A DNA stretch of 64,000 nucleotides from contig CAMORT010000003.1 of the NCBI GenBank assembly GCA_946624065.1, forward strand, positions 3,593 through 67,592. Reading direction: 5' to 3'. The notes under the pieces are model-generated. The model saw nothing but the letters and a program-made list of their open reading frames with translations, ran no database searches and was not told where the DNA came from. The first letter of the stretch is position 1. Every line of letters starts with the position of its first letter. The position numbers and the translations under genes were made by a program. This document shows positions 25,523 to 53,359 of the stretch, piece by piece. Origin of the DNA: an uncultured Bacteroidales bacterium. GTDB taxonomy: Bacteria; Bacteroidota; Bacteroidia; Bacteroidales; WCHB1-69.

Positions 25523-26497
25523 GTGGATTTGAAAGACAGGAACGACATAATCAACTACGCCGCCGAGGTGTTGCAAGAGGAGGCGAATGCTGTACAAACC
25601 CTCAAACAGTATCTGACGGATGATTTTGTGAAGAGTGTGGAGACGATTCTGAATTCAAAAGGCCGGGTCATCGTCACCGGCATTGGAAAAAGCGCGATAA
25701 TCGGTCAGAAGATCGTTTCCACGCTGAATTCCACCGGCACACCGGCAGTCTTCATGCACGCGGCGGATGCCATACATGGGGATCTGGGCATTATCCAGCA
25801 AGACGATGTGGTTCTTTGCATATCCAAGAGCGGCAACACACCTGAAATTTCTTTGTTGACGCCCTTTCTGAAGAAAAACGGCAACATCCTGATTGCAATG
25901 GTCGGCAATACGGAGTCGCACCTCGCCCGCGAGGCCCATTATGTGCTCAATTGCACTGTGGAACGGGAAGCCAGTCCCAATAATCTGGCCCCAACAAGCA
26001 GTTCCACCGCCCAATTGGCCCTTGGCGACGCCCTTGCCTCCACCCTGATCAAGCTGCGCGGCTTCACTTCCGAAGATTTCGCCCAACTCCATCCAGGTGG
26101 CATTTTGGGAAAACGCCTCTATATGAAAGTCAAGGACTTGTACAAGTTCAACGATGTTCCGATGGTGGCCCCAACTGACCCGATGCAGACCGTGATTTTG
26201 GAAATCTCCGGCAAATGCCTCGGCGTAACCGCCGTGGTGGAGAATGAGAAGGTGGTGGGAGCCATCACCGACGGCGACCTCCGGCGAATGCTGGAACGCA
26301 ATCCAGATTACAGTCGCCTCACCGCACAGGATGTGATGACAAAACAGCCGAAATCGGTCCACGAAGAAACCCTCGTCGTGGATGCGCTGGAACTGATGAA
26401 GAGCAAGAACATCACCAACCTCTTTGTCATTGACAGCCAGGAACGTTATCTTGGAGTGATTCATCTCCACGATATCATCAAGGAGGGTATTTACTAA
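25523..26497 (+). CDS. kdsD: KpsF/GutQ-family arabinose-5-phosphate isomerase (SIS + 2 CBS)
   Basis: GRVIVTGIGKSAIIGQKIVSTLNSTGTPAVFMHAADAIHGDLG SIS motif, with a CBS pair at the C-terminus. GTG start. Confidence 0.88.
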   Translation: MDLKDRNDIINYAAEVLQEEANAVQTLKQYLTDDFVKSVETILNSKGRVIVTGIGKSAIIGQKIVSTLNSTGTPAVFMHAADAIHGDLGIIQQDDVVLCISKSGNTPEISLLTPFLKKNGNILIAMVGNTESHLAREAHYVLNCTVEREASPNNLAPTSSSTAQLALGDALASTLIKLRGFTSEDFAQLHPGGILGKRLYMKVKDLYKFNDVPMVAPTDPMQTVILEISGKCLGVTAVVENEKVVGAITDGDLRRMLERNPDYSRLTAQDVMTKQPKSVHEETLVVDALELMKSKNITNLFVIDSQERYLGVIHLHDIIKEGIY

Positions 26498-26499
26498 CT

Positions 26500-26581
26500 G
26501 CCCGGATGGCGGAAGTGGTAGACGCGCACGTTTCAGGTGCGTGTGCCGAAAGGCGTGCAGGTTCAAGTCCTGTTCCGGGCA
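26500..26581 (+). tRNA. tRNA-Leu (anticodon CAG)
   Basis: Acceptor stem GCCCGGA / TCCGGGC. D arm TGGCGGAAGTGGTAGACGC is typical of tRNA-Leu. Anticodon stem CACGT / GCGTG with loop TTCAGGT. Long variable arm, T arm GGTTCAAGTCC, and no encoded CCA. Confidence 0.85.
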
Positions 26582-26586
26582 CTGAA
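26566..26586 (+). repeat. attL-like copy of a 21-bp direct repeat (AGTCCTGTTCCGGGCACTGAA), covering the last 16 nt of tRNA-Leu(CAG) plus 5 nt
   Basis: Identical 21-mer at 31298-31318. Confidence 0.85.
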
Positions 26587-26636
26587 GGATTTTGCAAGTA
26601 GTTCAAAATGAACGAAAATGCAGAATCCTTTTTTTT
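26585..26636 (+). terminator. hairpin plus T run following tRNA-Leu(CAG), supplied by the inserted DNA
   Basis: AAGGATTTTGCA / TGCAGAATCCTT (12 bp, one G-U pair), 22-nt loop, then TTTTTTTT. Confidence 0.55.
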
Positions 26637-26711
26637 GTGTCGTTTTGTCACGAGTCATATTTTATGTGTTCATGCATAAAAATTATTGTTTTGCTGTTAC
26701 AAAATAATACT

Positions 26712-26719
26712 TATCTTTG
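26712..26719 (+). promoter_or_regulatory. -7 promoter box TAtcTTTG for the YhcG-like gene
   Basis: TAnnTTTG, 22 nt upstream of the ATG at 26741. It shows that the track's TTG start at 26717 is an artefact. Confidence 0.5.
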
Positions 26720-26740
26720 CATTCTAAAAACAACAAAACT

Positions 26741-27907
26741 ATGACTAACAAAACGACATTTATTTCCCGTGACATCATGACTGCCGATGAGGGCTATGTG
26801 CAATGGATGGCTGACATCAAGCAGCGTTTCCGTCAAAGCCAATTAAAAGCGGCAGTTCGAGTGAACACCACCATGCTTGAATTTTACTGGAGTGTAGGCC
26901 GTGATTTGGTGGCACTGCGTGCTGAAGAGCGTTGGGGATCTGGCGTGGTTAAACAATTTGCCCTTGACATGCGGCAGGCATTTCCTAATGAAACAGGATT
27001 CTCATACTCCAATGTAAAATACATGAAACAATGGTATTTATATTATTATGAGAGAGTTATAAAATGTCAGCAAGCGGCTAACGAAAAAAGCCACCAGCTT
27101 GGTGGCCAATTGGAAGTCGTTGAAAAAAGCCAGCAAATTGCTGGCCAAATTGATATTCTGAAGAAAGGCCAGCAGCCTGCTGGCCAATTAGAGATGCCCG
27201 AGATTTTTGGAAGAATACCGTGGTTCCATCATGTCCAGATCATTTCCAAATGTAAGACTCTTGATGATGCTTTATTCTATATCGATCGAGTGGTGGCAGA
27301 AGGCTGGAGCCGCAGCAAACTTGAGAACCAAATTGCCGCTAATCTTTACGGCAGTCAAGGTGCAGCGGTTAATAATTTTGCAAGCACATTGCCTTCCACA
27401 CAGAGCCAATTGGCGAAAGAACTATTGAAAGACCCTTATCATTTCGACTTCCTGTCCATGGAAGAGGAGTATGTGGAAAAAGACTTGGAAGACGCCCTTG
27501 TCTCGAAGGTCACGCAGTTCCTGTTGGAGTTGGGGAAAGGTTTTTCATATGTGGGTCGTCAGATGGAGTTGCAAATGCCCGGAGGGCAGACCTTCTTTCC
27601 CGACTTGTTGTTCTATCACATACCGCAGCACCGCTATGTTGTCGTTGAGTTGAAGGTGGTGAAGTTCATCCCCGAGTTTGCCGGCAAACTGAATTTCTAT
27701 GTCTCTGCCGTTGACGAGTTGTTGCGTGCTGAGGGCGACAACCCCACCGTAGGACTGATTATCTGCAAATCGAGCGACAAGACCGTTGTGGAATGGTCGT
27801 TGAAAGACATCAGCAAGCCTCTTGGCGTATCCACCTACCAACTTGAGCAGGTGGTCGCTCGCACGGTGAGAGAGTTGGAACAGAGGAAAGGAGAGGGACG
27901 GAAATAG
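26741..27907 (+). CDS. YhcG/DUF1016-family PD-(D/E)xK nuclease domain protein
   Basis: DUF1016 N-domain pattern (NTTMLEFYWSVGRDLV...WGSGVVKQFALDMRQAFPNETGFSYSNVKYMKQWY). C-terminal nuclease core (FLLELGKGFSYVGRQ...FFPDLLFYHIPQHRYVVVELKVVKF...GKLNFY). Confidence 0.8.
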   Translation: MTNKTTFISRDIMTADEGYVQWMADIKQRFRQSQLKAAVRVNTTMLEFYWSVGRDLVALRAEERWGSGVVKQFALDMRQAFPNETGFSYSNVKYMKQWYLYYYERVIKCQQAANEKSHQLGGQLEVVEKSQQIAGQIDILKKGQQPAGQLEMPEIFGRIPWFHHVQIISKCKTLDDALFYIDRVVAEGWSRSKLENQIAANLYGSQGAAVNNFASTLPSTQSQLAKELLKDPYHFDFLSMEEEYVEKDLEDALVSKVTQFLLELGKGFSYVGRQMELQMPGGQTFFPDLLFYHIPQHRYVVVELKVVKFIPEFAGKLNFYVSAVDELLRAEGDNPTVGLIICKSSDKTVVEWSLKDISKPLGVSTYQLEQVVARTVRELEQRKGEGRK

Positions 27908-28220
27908 GTTGCACAGGGCGGTTGTATTTTTGCAAATGAGAAACGAAACAGAAACGAAGCAAATAATTTTAAAGAAGCATATTATTTGTTCGAATAACTG
28001 ACTCTAAATTATTCGTATAATAAAAATCCACATCGAAATGTGTCACCATCTCGAAGTTTAAGATTTTTTTGTTATTTTTGTATCGTCTTTTTTTTGTTTT
28101 GGAGAGAAACCAAAACTCCCCTTCCATATTATAACCTTAAATTATGTTTCACAATACCATTCCTATTAAATATAATTCTTCAACTGTAACTTTAACGGAA
28201 TAATGCCTGCCTTTTTGTGA

Positions 28221-30242
28221 TTAGAAAGGCACATTGTCAAATAATGACCTCATCTTTTCTCTCTCATTATAAATTTCATAGATCGCATTATCAGCCATAC
28301 TTTCACCAAGTTTGGAAGCTCTTTCATAATACTTTATCGCCTCATTGTCATCTTTCTCAACCACAATTCCATTGTGATAATATTCTCCAATCATAAAAAT
28401 CGCCTTCGCATAATCATCCTTGGCCGCTTGTTGGAAATATCCCAAAGCCGCTGACTTGTCTTCTGTAACTCCTTTGCCATTATAAAGACAATATCCGAGC
28501 ATAAAAATTGCAGGAACATAATTCCCGGATGCTGCCATCTTAAACCATCTTACAGCCTCTTCCTCATTCTCTTCCACTGCATATCCGTTAAAATAATGAT
28601 ACCCTATCATACATTTGGCGCCCACATGACCTGCCGCTGCCGCTTTCTGAAAACATTGAAAAGCCCATTTTTTATTTACTTTGGTCCCATCACCGTAATA
28701 GTAGCAACAGCCTGATGAGAACAATCCACTTAAATGGTTTTTTGACGCAGAAACTCTGAACCATTTTGCTGCCTCCTTCATGTTTTTCCTTACACCCTCG
28801 CCATATTCGTACATTAACCCCACTTGGAATTGAGCCTCCTCATTTCCAAGAGTAGCAGCCGAATAATACCACTTATACGCTTCCTGCCGATCTTCTGTCA
28901 TCCCATTTTTACCATCACAATAACTGTCTGCAAGAAAGCATTGGGCATCGGTATCTCCCATCTTCGCTGCCTTGCGATATGCGGCAACGATCTCTTCTGT
29001 AGGAGCATGGAGTTCCTCAAGACAATAAGCGATAAATACTTGAGCAGTAGCATCGCCTTTTGCAGCCGATTTTTCAAATAGTTGCATTGCCTTTGAATAG
29101 TCTAAGGGAGAACCTTCTCCTCTGAAATAACTTAGCCCGAGATTGAAATGAGCGTGACGATGTCCTTGTTCGACTGCCTTAATAAACCACTTGTTTCCCT
29201 CAACGATGTCTTTTTCAACGCCCTGTCCGTAAAAATAACTGTTCCCCAAATCGCATTGACACTTGGCATCCCCTTTTTCGGCAGCTTCCTTTATCCAACT
29301 GATAGGGCGGTCCTGAATCATATATTCTTCTCCCATGAAACCATTGCACCACCAATTCGTAGAGACATTCCACGAAATGCAATTCAATGCACCACCCTTC
29401 CGAACAGCCTCCAACGCAGGTATGCCGACAACACTACATTTTGGCATCGCAGCTGAAATTTGTTCCAGAGCCTGTTCATCCTCTGGTATTCCTAACTGAG
29501 GGACTAAAACCAATGAACCAATCTGGAGAAAGTTGATGTATGCCCAACTACGTTTATGCTTGCGTTTCACATTGTACTCCAACGGAATAACTTCCACATA
29601 TTCATCCAATGCCTTGATATACTTTCGCGCCATTGATGCATCGAAATCAGCATAGTTGGTCATAAGGACACGATTGTTGCCAACATAATGAACAATGCCA
29701 TCGCTGTGACCCAACATCTCTTGCTTATCCCAAGGTAAGAATACAATACCGCATTGGAAAGCTTCTTCAAGCATACGGATAACTTTCACCTGAGATTTGT
29801 CTTTATTCTCAAAGAACACCTTCTCCGTCATTATTATTTTGTCATCGCATTTTACAATATTCCCCCCATCAATCACCAGATCCAGATTCGCAATTTCTCC
29901 TTCGTGCAGACAATCAATATTCCCCACCTTATTGACATCGGTGATAGTTCTCCGGAGATGTGGTTTTTGAAGATAGTCGGGATTATACTTGTAAAAGACA
30001 AAATGGTTCCAATCAGTCTGAATAGGCATATAATCACGACACCAGATGTCTCTTGTATTTGTCAAAAGCCTATGGTCTATACATTTCTCATGTAGAATTT
30101 TATGCAAGCTTTCATACAATATCGGACACTCTTTTGGGAGCCAATCCGAGAAAAAGACCGTGTCAGTCATTCTGTCTACTCCGTGACAGCCGTGATAGAC
30201 ACCATATAAGGTGTTACCGTTTTTGATATTGCCATTAGCCAT
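28221..30242 (-). CDS. pentein-superfamily (agmatine deiminase / PAD-like) enzyme fused to about 10 Sel1-like repeats; 673 aa, no signal peptide
   Basis: Motifs in canonical order: DIWCRDYMP, VIDGGNIVKCDDKIIMTEK, MLGHSDGIVHYV, KGGALNCISWN (Cys288). Sel1 repeats span about aa 305-660 (e.g. AAEKGDAKCQCDLGNSYFYGQGVEKD). Confidence 0.7.
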   Translation of the reverse strand: MANGNIKNGNTLYGVYHGCHGVDRMTDTVFFSDWLPKECPILYESLHKILHEKCIDHRLLTNTRDIWCRDYMPIQTDWNHFVFYKYNPDYLQKPHLRRTITDVNKVGNIDCLHEGEIANLDLVIDGGNIVKCDDKIIMTEKVFFENKDKSQVKVIRMLEEAFQCGIVFLPWDKQEMLGHSDGIVHYVGNNRVLMTNYADFDASMARKYIKALDEYVEVIPLEYNVKRKHKRSWAYINFLQIGSLVLVPQLGIPEDEQALEQISAAMPKCSVVGIPALEAVRKGGALNCISWNVSTNWWCNGFMGEEYMIQDRPISWIKEAAEKGDAKCQCDLGNSYFYGQGVEKDIVEGNKWFIKAVEQGHRHAHFNLGLSYFRGEGSPLDYSKAMQLFEKSAAKGDATAQVFIAYCLEELHAPTEEIVAAYRKAAKMGDTDAQCFLADSYCDGKNGMTEDRQEAYKWYYSAATLGNEEAQFQVGLMYEYGEGVRKNMKEAAKWFRVSASKNHLSGLFSSGCCYYYGDGTKVNKKWAFQCFQKAAAAGHVGAKCMIGYHYFNGYAVEENEEEAVRWFKMAASGNYVPAIFMLGYCLYNGKGVTEDKSAALGYFQQAAKDDYAKAIFMIGEYYHNGIVVEKDDNEAIKYYERASKLGESMADNAIYEIYNEREKMRSLFDNVPF

Positions 30243-30243
30243 A

Positions 30244-30999
30244 CTAATTCCATTTTTCAGTTATACCGCTTCTAACAAATCTCCATTGTCTTGGGTCCTG
30301 TCTATAATAATGATTCTTATCTACCTTAATATATTTGTCCTGATTGGCTATGTAATCCGCTTCGCTAATTATTCTTTCCCCATTCCAAACCCTATTATCT
30401 TTTTTATCCGGTTGTAAATATACTGCAACATTTTTTCGTGTAAGAGGGGCCCCTAATGTGAAGTCATTCCCTTTATGTTGTACCCATTCAATAGTAGTCC
30501 TTTTGGCTGAATCAAATGAAATACCATAGGGAAACATATCATCGTATATATGAGTTGAATGCGCATCAAAAATAGAATCCGTTTTCAGTTCGCTTTCCTT
30601 TTTTAGCACACGGTAAGAACGAATGAGGAAAGATGCTCGATACCTTTCATCTTCATTTTCAAAAGTCACATCAATTCCAGATTGATGAAAATTGAAACTT
30701 CCCAAATCAAAATATGGGAACTTTCCATTATCATAACAGAACAAAGAATGCGATCTCTTGGCATTCGTATGATACATAATGTAATCCTTTATGGAACCTT
30801 CCTCTTCGTGATAGTATAATTCTATCGACCCCAAATCAATGATGAATTGACCATTGACGAGAAAAAATCCTTCACATAGAATTTTTCGCGCGTATGGCTC
30901 AAAACATTCAGCCACCTTATTCTCATTCCAGTCGGGACTTTTACTCATTGCATTTCTTTGTTTCCCAAATTCTTCGAGAATCGTAATCAAATCTTTCAT
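30244..30999 (-). CDS. 251-aa protein of unknown function, spaced 1 nt from the pentein-Sel1 gene
   Basis: Its TAG stop at 30244-30246 is 1 nt from the downstream ATG at 30242. No signal peptide. There is only a weak motif-level resemblance to AAG/MPG-type glycosylases (see findings). Confidence 0.6.
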   Translation of the reverse strand: MKDLITILEEFGKQRNAMSKSPDWNENKVAECFEPYARKILCEGFFLVNGQFIIDLGSIELYYHEEEGSIKDYIMYHTNAKRSHSLFCYDNGKFPYFDLGSFNFHQSGIDVTFENEDERYRASFLIRSYRVLKKESELKTDSIFDAHSTHIYDDMFPYGISFDSAKRTTIEWVQHKGNDFTLGAPLTRKNVAVYLQPDKKDNRVWNGERIISEADYIANQDKYIKVDKNHYYRQDPRQWRFVRSGITEKWN

Positions 31000-31032
31000 A
31001 ATAATGTTGTTTTAGTTATTTAATTCCAAGTG

Positions 31033-31040
31033 CAAAGGTA
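31033..31040 (-). promoter_or_regulatory. -7 promoter box TAccTTTG (minus strand) for the two-gene module
   Basis: The reverse complement of CAAAGGTA; 34 nt upstream of the ATG at 30999. Confidence 0.5.
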
Positions 31041-31297
31041 TATCGAAAGGTAGGTTTGAAAAAATCTTTTCTGTTAAAAGTTGTTAAAGTTTTCCAAAAA
31101 GTTATTTATTATTCTATTATATTTAAAAACAAATCATTATCTATTTTATTATTAACAGAATAGAAATGCTTAAAGTTGGTCATAATTTGGTCATGTTTTA
31201 GAAGTTTTGTTGGTCGTAGTAGTCATTTTTAAGAATAATATAAACTGTCAAAATTCACAATGTCAATTAAGAAGAAACAACAAGAACTTCTCTCATG

Positions 31298-31318
31298 AGT
31301 CCTGTTCCGGGCACTGAA
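31298..31318 (+). repeat. attR-like copy of the 21-bp direct repeat (AGTCCTGTTCCGGGCACTGAA)
   Basis: Identical to 26566-26586. No tRNA body precedes it. Confidence 0.85.
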
Positions 31319-31320
31319 AA

Positions 31321-31359
31321 AAAGGTAGGGATGAATGATCATTCGCCCCTACCTTTTTT
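31321..31359 (+). terminator. hairpin plus T run immediately after the attR copy (probably the original tRNA-Leu terminator)
   Basis: AGGTAGGG / CCCTACCT stem with an inner GAATGA/TCATTC pairing, an A run before it and TTTTTT after it. Confidence 0.65.
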
Positions 31360-31360
31360 G

Positions 31361-31368
31361 TATCTTTG
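31361..31368 (+). promoter_or_regulatory. -7 promoter box TAtcTTTG for rsmI
   Basis: TAnnTTTG, 20 nt upstream of the ATG at 31388. Confidence 0.55.
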
Positions 31369-31387
31369 CGCTTCAAATGCGATTATA

Positions 31388-32065
31388 ATGAAACTCTTTA
31401 TCGTCCCAACCCCTATCGGCAATCTGGAGGATATAACTCTTCGGGCGCTCAATGTGTTGCGCTCCGTGGATCTGATTCTCTGCGAGGATACCCGCACCAC
31501 CCGCAAGCTGCTCCAACACTACGAGATTGACAAACGCTGTATGGCGTACCATATCTTCAATGAGCATGAGCAGATGAACCGCTTCTTGGGTGAGATAAAA
31601 GCCCATGAGCAAGTGGCGCTGGTGAGCGACGCCGGCACTCCCGGCATCTCCGACCCCGGATTCCTACTCGTGCGCGAGTGCGTGGCCAACGGCATCGAGG
31701 TGGAATGTCTGCCCGGCGCCACCGCCTTTGTGCCCGCCTTGGTGCAGTCGGGACTCCCCTGCAGCAGTTTCTACTTCTATGGCTTCCTGCCTCACAAGAA
31801 AGGCAAGGAAACGCTGCTGAAACGCGTGGCCCAGATGGAGGAGACCGTCGTCTTCTACGAATCCCCCCACCGCCTGCTCAAATCACTGGAAAAAATGGTT
31901 GAGATAATGGGACCGGACCGCAAGATTTCCATATCCAAAGAAATCTCCAAAATTTACGCGCACACGTTCCGCGGTACCCTCGCTGAGGCAGTCGAACATT
32001 TCGCCCAAGACGAAGTGAAAGGGGAATTTGTAATGGTAATTGCACCGAAGGACGCACGAGGGTAG
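31388..32065 (+). CDS. rsmI: 16S rRNA (cytidine1402-2'-O)-methyltransferase
   Basis: MKLFIVPTPIGNLEDITLRALNVLRSVDLILCEDTR is the RsmI N-terminus. The track ORF start at 31295 runs through the att repeat, terminator and promoter, so it is rejected. Confidence 0.88.
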   Translation: MKLFIVPTPIGNLEDITLRALNVLRSVDLILCEDTRTTRKLLQHYEIDKRCMAYHIFNEHEQMNRFLGEIKAHEQVALVSDAGTPGISDPGFLLVRECVANGIEVECLPGATAFVPALVQSGLPCSSFYFYGFLPHKKGKETLLKRVAQMEETVVFYESPHRLLKSLEKMVEIMGPDRKISISKEISKIYAHTFRGTLAEAVEHFAQDEVKGEFVMVIAPKDARG

Positions 32066-53242: not shown

Positions 53243-53326
53243 GCCCAGGTGGTGGAATTGGTAGACACGCTACTTTGAGGGGGTAGTGGGAGTACTCCCG
53301 TGCAAGTTCGACTCTTGTCCTGGGCA
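53243..53326 (+). tRNA. tRNA-Leu (anticodon GAG)
   Basis: Acceptor GCCCAGG / CCTGGGC. D arm TGGTGGAATTGGTAGACAC. Anticodon stem CTACT / GGTAG with loop TTGAGGG. Long variable arm and T arm AGTTCGACTCT. Confidence 0.85.
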
Positions 53327-53330
53327 CTGA

Positions 53331-53359
53331 AAAAGAACCTGATACAGGTTCTTTTTTTT
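53331..53359 (+). terminator. intrinsic terminator after tRNA-Leu(GAG)
   Basis: GAACCTG / CAGGTTC stem, loop ATA, an A run before it and TTTTTTTT after it. Confidence 0.8.

Follow-up and report, generated by a model that had tools for sequence, protein, structure and literature searches.

How does a cluster of genes come to sit exactly at the 3' end of a tRNA gene, framed on both sides by a copy of that end, when no integrase is encoded within it? We address this question for a 4.7-kb islet of three genes inserted at tRNA-Leu(CAG), between kdsD and rsmI, in a 64-kb stretch of DNA from an uncultured Bacteroidales bacterium (hereafter the window). We find that the ends of the islet match those of an apparently undescribed family of tRNA-Leu-targeting elements in rumen and gut Bacteroidales, some of which carry a tyrosine integrase. 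Our favoured reading, to which we give a probability of roughly two in three, is that the islet is an integrase-less derivative of this family, akin to a cis-mobilizable element (CIME), now passively inherited and spread mainly by recombination through its flanks. An islet of this kind is already familiar and does not overturn current ideas; how 'immobile' defence islands get about is an open question, for which the locus provides a concrete case.

Anatomy of the insertion at tRNA-Leu(CAG)

The 21-mer AGTCCTGTTCCGGGCACTGAA is present exactly twice in the window, the right copy starting 4,732 bp downstream of the left (positions of all features are given in Table 1), against an expectation of 0.00 in shuffled sequence. 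No further copy is found in the window even when up to 3 mismatches are allowed, and the 21-mer is thus not a dispersed repeat, which the original prediction, made from the sequence of the window, had named as a finding that would count against it. It is the sole perfect long direct repeat within 26400-31500, and no terminal inverted repeats were found at the islet ends in that interval. The left copy, the core of the left attachment site (attL), consists of the last 16 nt of tRNA-Leu(CAG) and 5 further nt, and the right copy (attR) has no tRNA body before it, as judged by ARAGORN and Rfam; the first 17 nt of the repeat, AGTCCTGTTCCGGGCAC, are the core common to all CAG-type members of the family described below. 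The tRNA has been retained intact despite the insertion at its 3' end, with both programs calling a complete gene, and its sequence is 100% identical across all related loci. Each copy of the repeat is followed by a hairpin and a T-run, the left one (26583-26640) folding at -20.5 kcal/mol (z -4.9) and the right one (31315-31362) at -22.0 kcal/mol (z -7.0). These were judged by folding, a simple terminator scanner with a loop limit of 3-8 nt having overlooked both; an Rfam scan of 26000-32000 (E<=0.1) returns the tRNA alone, and the left hairpin matches no RNA family.

The empty site exists in the same species. Contig L008, with flanks 97-98% identical to the window, reads from tRNA-Leu(CAG) through GGGCACTGAA directly into AAAAAGGTAGGGATG; the repeat is the exact point at which homology to the window is lost, and the two differ by exactly one repeat copy plus 4.7 kb. 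The left hairpin is not present in L008. The right-hand hairpin adjoins the tRNA directly there, and is therefore the native tRNA terminator, now displaced by the insertion.

Most of this anatomy had been set out in the original prediction, which described the perfect repeat and its relation to the tRNA, a terminator after each copy with the right-hand one pushed away from its tRNA, and an empty-site sequence that L008 matches exactly. The three enclosed genes and their housekeeping flanks are likewise as described, with Pfam assigning a KdsD-like protein (SIS and CBS domains) on the left and an RsmI-like protein (TP_methylase), then enolase, on the right. The predicted contrast in base composition holds in direction and not in size: GC content is 39.9% over 28221-30999, where about 35% had been estimated, and 52.6% in eno, where about 58% had been estimated. 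The islet as a whole, at 39.6%, is the lowest of all 4.7-kb windows in the 64 kb (mean 47.5%, standard deviation 2.2). The claim that no integrase, recombinase, excisionase or transposase lies between the repeats is borne out at two levels: Pfam detects no integrase, excisionase, resolvase, primase, transposase or relaxase domain in the three islet genes, and tblastn with the family integrase (Int), excisionase (Xis), primase-like, resolvase, ORF6N and RhuM proteins gives no match inside 26587-31297. No integrase is found by tblastn in the whole window (E<0.08). A prophage remnant is ruled out, as there are no phage genes.

An element family with the same ends

Integrase-bearing relatives of the islet occur at the same tRNA and at other tRNA-Leu genes. 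In another strain of the same species (contig L009), a 453-aa tyrosine integrase is encoded on the opposite strand about 150 bp from tRNA-Leu(CAG), with weak, sub-threshold matches to Arm-DNA-bind_5, Phage_int_SAM_5 and the catalytic domain; this element also encodes a 108-aa Xis-like helix-turn-helix protein, a resolvase and a PcfJ-like protein, and no relaxase domain was found in the genes scanned. An integrase 76% identical to it lies beside tRNA-Leu(CAA) in L073, with TTGGTCAT arms, and L073 and L068 are the two ends of one element of about 15.6 kb on a single contig. In L063 the last 66 integrase codons remain beside an intact left end, and integrase decay is thus caught underway there. 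Among roughly 17 left ends, one has a full integrase, one this remnant and one a distant homologue, and most have no integrase adjacent to them. The original prediction had recognised a signature of site-specific integration into a tRNA 3' end and had offered a decayed islet or one mobilised in trans; the empty site and the integrase-bearing ends support the former statement, and with islet ends homologous to this family, and L009 at the same tRNA, the latter was right in kind.

The extent of the family was gauged with an arm-motif scan of one genome per species across 185,579 species, which returned 69 loci, 29 of them from metagenome-assembled genomes (MAGs) labelled Bacteroidales, uncultured Bacteroidetes or 'bacterium P3', many with goat, yak or sheep digestive tract as their source. 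The remaining loci are scattered and lack tRNA-Leu context. The Bacteroidales loci nearly always fall into two contexts, either just 3' of a tRNA-Leu gene, be it CAA, CAG or a GAG/CAG pair, or some 120 bp ahead of an orphan tRNA-Leu 3'-end copy of the CAG or CAA type. The sample of members is biased, since intact arm repeats were what the search looked for. A scan of viral_contigs (IMG/VR) gave five matches, none in family context, and the family is not represented as phage in that collection.

The left end of a family member reads core, 4-6 nt, the hairpin GGATTTTGCAAGTAGTTCAAAATGAACGAAAATGCA(A/G)AATCC with its T-run, and then two direct arm repeats 11 bp apart, TTTGGTCATA(A/T)TTTGGTCAT; the right end reads TTGGTCATAATTTGGTCAT, about 15 nt, TTGGTCATAGTGACCAT, about 75 nt, and the core, a layout that recurs in another 16 right ends of Bacteroidales MAGs. 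When 18 family copies of the left hairpin are aligned, pairing holds in 86% of cells, where slid partners give 29-48%. Compensatory changes occur in four pairs; we infer that this hairpin is a replacement terminator for the rebuilt tRNA. The islet retains the core, the hairpin and the right-end cluster of two exact TTGGTCAT repeats and one degenerate copy, these three lying about 90-120 bp ahead of the attR core. Its left arm repeats are recognisable only as a decayed remnant, probably no longer a binding site. The islet right end shares 75% identity with that of another module in L006 and 89% with that in L102, and by eye it is near-identical to that in L056. In five contigs (L006, L053, L086, L088 and L102) a right end is followed directly by another left end to form tandem arrays, and the internal junctions of these arrays, with right end, core, hairpin and left arms in sequence, resemble complete attP sites. 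What emerges is an attachment-site architecture of core, replacement terminator and 11-bp-spaced arm repeats, shared by many integrase-less derivatives and tandem arrays.

The arm repeats occur in three variants, TTGGTCAT, TTGGCCAC and ATGGCCAA, all of type TGG[CT]CA and each present as an 11-bp-spaced pair beside the integrase 3' end. Because the integrase N-terminus is, on our reading of the alignment, the region that diverges most between arm variants, the comparison supports the view that the repeats are putative arm-type integrase binding sites. NBU1 also has paired direct-repeat arm sites at its attachment site. The integrase itself is abundant in metagenomes, with >1,500 homologues at E<1e-20 and over a hundred above 69% identity; the closest annotated records in a tblastn search of phage and plasmid records are at most 40% identical and are generic 'phage integrase SAM-like' genes.

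Three sets of relatives merit separate description. Contigs L109-L114 carry integrases 87% identical to that of L009 in small elements with a resolvase, about 8 small open reading frames, an Xis-like gene and Int; these elements have two copies of the third arm variant, ATGGCCAA, and no tRNA adjoins them. Contigs repeatedly break inside them, which suggests that the sequence is multi-copy or variable. Just inside the right end of L068 (5266-7516) we read a 607-aa TnpB/Cas12-like open reading frame next to a set of short repeats at regular intervals, perhaps a small cargo locus of the CRISPR or omega-RNA type. In L056 (3800-5400, minus strand) a 1.5-kb family member with an ORF6N-like gene alone has on either side a repeat of about 50 bp, composed of the tRNA core and the host native terminator.

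Table 1. Features of the islet and its borders, in window coordinates
Feature	Position	Strand	Basis or remark
Intact tRNA-Leu(CAG), integration target	26500-26582	+	ARAGORN; Rfam RF00005 at 26500-26581, 46.9 bits
Left 21-bp repeat, attL core: last 16 nt of the tRNA plus CTGAA	26566-26586	+	
Element-borne hairpin and T-run in place of the native tRNA terminator	26587-26640	+	Family left-end signature
Degenerate remnant of two left arm repeats, TTTTGTCACGAGTCATATTTT versus family TTTGGTCATAATTTGGTCATATTTT	26643-26663	+	Comparison by eye
yhcG, DUF1016/YhcG PD-(D/E)XK nuclease	26741-27907	+	Pfam YhcG_C 4.8e-55, DUF1016_N 5e-32
AT-rich inter-module junction, 30% GC	27908-28220		
673-aa protein, N-terminal PAD_porph (agmatine-deiminase-like) and 8 Sel1 repeats	28221-30242	-	Pfam PAD_porph 1.2e-21, Sel1 8.3e-66
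251-aa protein, partner of PAD-like genes	30244-30999	-	>400 homologues
Conserved family right end	31176-31297	+	Arms, spacer, then core
Right arm repeats TTGGTCAT, exact	31176-31183, 31187-31194	+	
Degenerate third right arm repeat TTGGTCGTAGTAGTCAT	31210-31226	+	Then about 70 nt to the core
Right 21-bp repeat, attR core	31298-31318	+	No tRNA body upstream (ARAGORN)
Native tRNA-Leu(CAG) terminator, displaced by the insertion	31319-31362	+	Adjoins the tRNA directly in L008
rsmI-like methyltransferase, right core flank	31388-32065	+	Pfam TP_methylase 3.1e-31

Strain variation, spread and competing explanations

Across all look-ups we find at least eight states between the tRNA and rsmI, and not the one gene order in all relatives that the original prediction had named as contrary evidence. 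Reading 24 contigs that encode an identical KdsD gave the islet in 9, a DpnII restriction-modification system in 6, two small open reading frames in 4, the empty site in 2, and a tandem array and an integrase element in one each. The islet structure is present in >20 independent assemblies (ENA, NCBI, JGI, Logan), one of which, L003, matches the window over 21 kb at 100% identity. An identical YhcG protein accompanies other cargo in L023 (four unknown genes) and L024 (a WYL protein and an NsnB/AriA-like ATPase). In the array of L006/L016 the tRNA is followed by a GerE/protease module, a decayed attachment site with a hairpin, a module of AbiLi, AbiLii and a helicase, a perfect 21-mer, the islet and rsmI; tblastn finds no integrase anywhere in it. 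With restriction-modification, AbiLi/AbiLii, nuclease and AriA-like alternatives at one site, kdsD-tRNA-Leu(CAG)-rsmI is therefore a hypervariable defence-gene hotspot. Junction positions place its right limit at the rsmI promoter (from about 31355) in all strains, and the DpnII, small-ORF, L023 and L123 variants, which lack attR, end there. Just upstream of this promoter, L002, L004 and L023 carry a motif resembling a tRNA 3' end, GATTCCCA, GAGTCCCACCATTCCCGCA or GTTCGATTCCCA; such motifs may be relics of older attachment sites of another type. At the junction of the first two array modules in L006 (13880-13993), the decayed core AATCCTCCTGAGGTAC is closer to the tRNA-Leu(CAA) type than to the CAG one, a hint that this stretch of the array was put together at another tRNA-Leu gene and then transferred as one composite unit.

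The islet combines two modules in a mosaic, yhcG on the left and an operon of the 251-aa and PAD-Sel1 genes on the right. Homology of the window with L024 stops at 27937 and with L023 at 28087, and the drop in GC content coincides with this module boundary (the yhcG module extends to about 27940-28087). A sister-lineage contig, L123, which comes from the lineage of L022 (see below) and is independent of that contig, has the same hairpin at the same position and a yhcG 90.7% identical to that of the window, followed by different cargo and no attR. Its kdsD and eno are 88% and 87% identical to those of the window, so about as diverged as yhcG, and the left module (hairpin and yhcG) may therefore predate the lineage split and be much older than the right module; either it is old at the locus or it was exchanged long ago.

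The present distribution of the islet bears the mark of its flanks. In all carriers the islet is 99.1-99.8% identical; carrier flanks are 94-97% identical within the species, and in the L022 lineage identity to the window drops to 77% in the left flank and 84% in rsmI. Cargo type is uncoupled from flank phylogeny: in the left flank L001 (islet) and L002 (DpnII) differ at 2 per 1000 positions, and two islet carriers at 31 per 1000. The L022 copy, which we take on these comparisons to be a recent import, is mismatch-free over a tract (26492-31410) that continues through attR and the native terminator, across the rsmI promoter and seven codons into rsmI; beyond 31410, divergence is at once about 16%. 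Since the identical tract runs past attR, it points to homologous recombination through the flanks and not to integration of one attachment site into another. Flank phylogeny gave no direction for the empty allele, the flanks being recombinant. Across 38 index blocks the 251-aa/PAD module of the islet is found at this locus alone, in two sister lineages, and at no other tRNA-Leu and in no other genus. A scan of metagenome_contigs for the islet-type right junction returned two contigs, the known locus and L102, the latter a tandem junction of related elements without terminal overlap. For excision one would expect a circle junction of the form AACAAGAACTTCTCTCATG AGTCCTGTTCCGGGCACTGAA GGATTTTGCAAGTAG and a restored empty site GGTTCAAGTCCTGTTCCGGGCACTGAAAAAAAGGTAGGG; no islet circle junction was found in this one scan. 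Strains of the species differ by about 6% in rsmI (31411-32040), by about 3% in the left flank and by about 0.5% in eno, 200 bp beyond rsmI, a raised diversity beside the hotspot that is consistent with imported recombination tracts.

On our favoured reading, a circular element carrying the last 17-21 nt or so of the tRNA would have recombined with the tRNA 3' end, as the anatomy suggests; the tRNA would have been rebuilt from element DNA that supplied a new terminator hairpin, and the native terminator pushed 4.7 kb away, behind the second copy of the core. The integrase, the Xis-like gene and the left arm repeats would then have been lost or have decayed, leaving the core, the hairpin and the right arm cluster. 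Present spread, between strains and sister lineages, would proceed mainly by homologous recombination via the conserved flanks, and new elements would pile up at the tRNA-proximal attachment site to give tandem arrays. Relic attachment sites would thus reveal how the cargo originally arrived, and flank recombination would account for its present spread. Several points weigh against this account. The insertion mechanism is deduced from anatomy and family comparison, with no excision or integration event observed. A perfect 21-bp attR and well-kept right arms are surprising in a dead relic, and the site could still be in use. The hairpin of L123 and its 90.7% identical yhcG may fit poorly with one recent integration of the whole 4.7 kb; if the left module is older than the lineage split, the empty allele would therefore stem from precise deletion or introgression. 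A simple core crossover predicts something other than the repeat, native terminator included, around the L056 member. Finally, L022 is a k141 short-read metagenome contig in which the tRNA and hairpin supply 143 identical bp, and the join on the left could conceivably be chimeric.

The perfect repeats, together with a right end that keeps two exact arms and one near-exact arm and an exact empty site within the species, would also be expected if the islet were still mobile and non-autonomous, excised and re-integrated in trans by a family integrase elsewhere in the cell or community, with the array modules as exchangeable cassettes. This we hold to be unlikely, while recognising that complete attP-like units lie between modules in L006, L086, L088, L053 and L102, that most of the left ends have no adjacent integrase, that integrase homologues are plentiful in the same metagenomes (>1,500) and that the islet is near-identical across diverged backgrounds. 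The window copy has decayed left arm repeats, the sole traceable cross-lineage transfer (L022) reaches past attR as homologous recombination would, the 251-aa protein is confined to one locus in two sister lineages, and the single metagenome scan gave no circle junction; moreover, the family was found through its intact arm repeats, a biased ascertainment, and recombination between the 21-bp repeats could equally produce a precise deletion. A bolder form of the idea strikes us as distinctly improbable. Here the tRNA-Leu arrays would be an integron-like cassette system of integrase-less modules and attP-like units, each some 250 bp long and running from three arm repeats through the tRNA core and terminator hairpin to two further arm repeats, served in trans by the 453-aa integrase, with the islet one such cassette and the 251-aa and PAD-Sel1 proteins a new defence system. 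If true, this integrase family would shuffle, excise and capture modules with mostly defence-type cargo at the tRNA-Leu genes of rumen and gut Bacteroidales.

It is very improbable that site-specific recombination never acted here and that homologous and illegitimate recombination at a hotspot made the 21-bp repeat as an incidental duplication. Many E. coli (Escherichia coli) defence hotspots lack a detectable mobile element (PMC10121019), the L022 transfer itself indicates homologous recombination, and the DpnII, small-ORF, L023 and L123 variants end at the rsmI promoter without attR. Set against these are a repeat that is exactly the tRNA 3' end, islet ends that match integrase-bearing tRNA-Leu elements of many species module for module, an empty site that differs by exactly one repeat plus the insert, and an integrase element that another strain carries at the same tRNA. 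Chimeric joins can occur in metagenome assemblies, and nothing specific suggests one here; with >20 independent assemblies, one of them 100% identical over 21 kb, an assembly artefact, or else a transposon with target-site duplication, is scarcely credible. A transposon or insertion sequence is in fact ruled out, there being no terminal inverted repeats and no transposase, and the 21-bp repeat being the tRNA end.

These features place the islet among known systems. The CIME definition and the accretion model come from ICESt1/ICESt3-related islands of Streptococcus thermophilus (PMC5704250). Like a CIME, the islet lies between an attL and an attR that stem from a target-gene 3' end, lacks integrase, excisionase and transfer genes, has ends homologous to autonomous elements that use the same attachment site (L073/L068 and the left end of L009) and takes part in tandem arrays there, with the newer modules nearest the target gene (L006/L016). 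It differs in belonging to another phylum, in its decayed left arm sites and in a spread that seemingly proceeds by homologous recombination of the flanks; its parent elements are small Int/Xis/resolvase elements without recognised conjugation or relaxase genes. A CIME can move in cis once an incoming element has accreted beside it, and of these two stages the accretion is seen here (L006/L016). With tRNA-targeting tyrosine-integrase islands it shares insertion at the 3' end of a tRNA that stays intact, but it has no integrase of its own beside the attachment site. Two integrative mobilizable elements of Bacteroidota, NBU1 of Bacteroides uniformis and MTnPi4 of Prevotella intermedia, also target tRNA-Leu 3' ends (PMC5704250); the islet shares their phylum and target, and its family uses a tyrosine integrase, but it lacks an integrase, a MobP relaxase and an origin of transfer, and its cargo is of defence type and not resistance or toxin-antitoxin genes. 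E. coli hotspot #37 and the core defence hotspots of P. aeruginosa (Pseudomonas aeruginosa) are integrase-poor and lie between core genes (PMC10121019, PMC10250203). The present locus resembles them in its fixed position between conserved genes, its alternative defence systems (restriction-modification, Abi and nuclease candidates), its frequent lack of mobility genes and its occasional emptiness; unlike them, it has a relic attachment-site architecture that is still legible and integrase-bearing relatives at the same site. Integron cassettes are likewise promoter-poor or self-contained modules bounded by recombination sites, with a fixed attachment point and a recombinase able to act in trans, but neither the islet nor its family has an IntI integrase, an attC hairpin site or an attI platform, and family modules are multi-gene with lambda-like attP-style sites (core and arm repeats) of about 250 bp.

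Cargo of the islet and its immediate surroundings

The 251-aa protein has no Pfam, NCBIfam or PADLOC match, and its >400 homologues are all unannotated. Homologues in unrelated Bacteroidales contexts (after groES-groEL or after urocanase; L094-L101) always have a PAD_porph gene directly 3', of about 280-320 aa, followed by a small third gene, and the whole forms a conserved module. The islet differs from these other modules in the fusion of its PAD gene to 8 Sel1 repeats and in its placement in a defence hotspot; the 673-aa fusion protein has no PADLOC match. An AlphaFold2 model of the 251-aa protein is well defined (predicted local distance difference test, 92.4; predicted template-modelling (TM) score, 0.88), yet a Foldseek search of the PDB gives no fold match (best E 0.36), and a search of BFVD returns two weak matches only, to uncharacterised giant-virus proteins (TM 0.34-0.42). 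By guilt by association, the 251-aa and PAD-like pair is a candidate defence or modification system.

At the right border, a reading frame that starts at an ATG within the repeat (ATGAGTCCTG...) continues into rsmI (31295-32065, plus strand). RsmI gene calls are 254-256 aa on islet contigs, 223-225 aa elsewhere and 275 aa on the empty-site contig L008; the longer calls on islet contigs therefore follow from this ATG and are an annotation artefact of the insertion. Further along the window, tRNA-Leu(GAG) (53243-53331) ends in ACTCTTGTCCTGGGCACTGAA, with 4 mismatches to the 21-mer, a similarity that had been pointed out beforehand. No insertion or family motifs are found at this gene, and its own terminator lies directly 3'.

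The remaining islet gene, yhcG, is a candidate defence gene on the strength of its profile matches: the protein matches the PADLOC PDC-S02 profile over residues 14-378 (E 5.9e-132). Within yhcG lies a 39-bp tandem repeat of 2.8 copies (27083-27189), each a GC-rich palindrome, GGCCAGCA..TGCTGGCC; in the protein this gives a 13-aa repeat as an insertion within the DUF1016 N-terminal domain. In the sister lineage, the YhcG of L123 is shorter by 13 aa, suggesting that this repeat varies in copy number.

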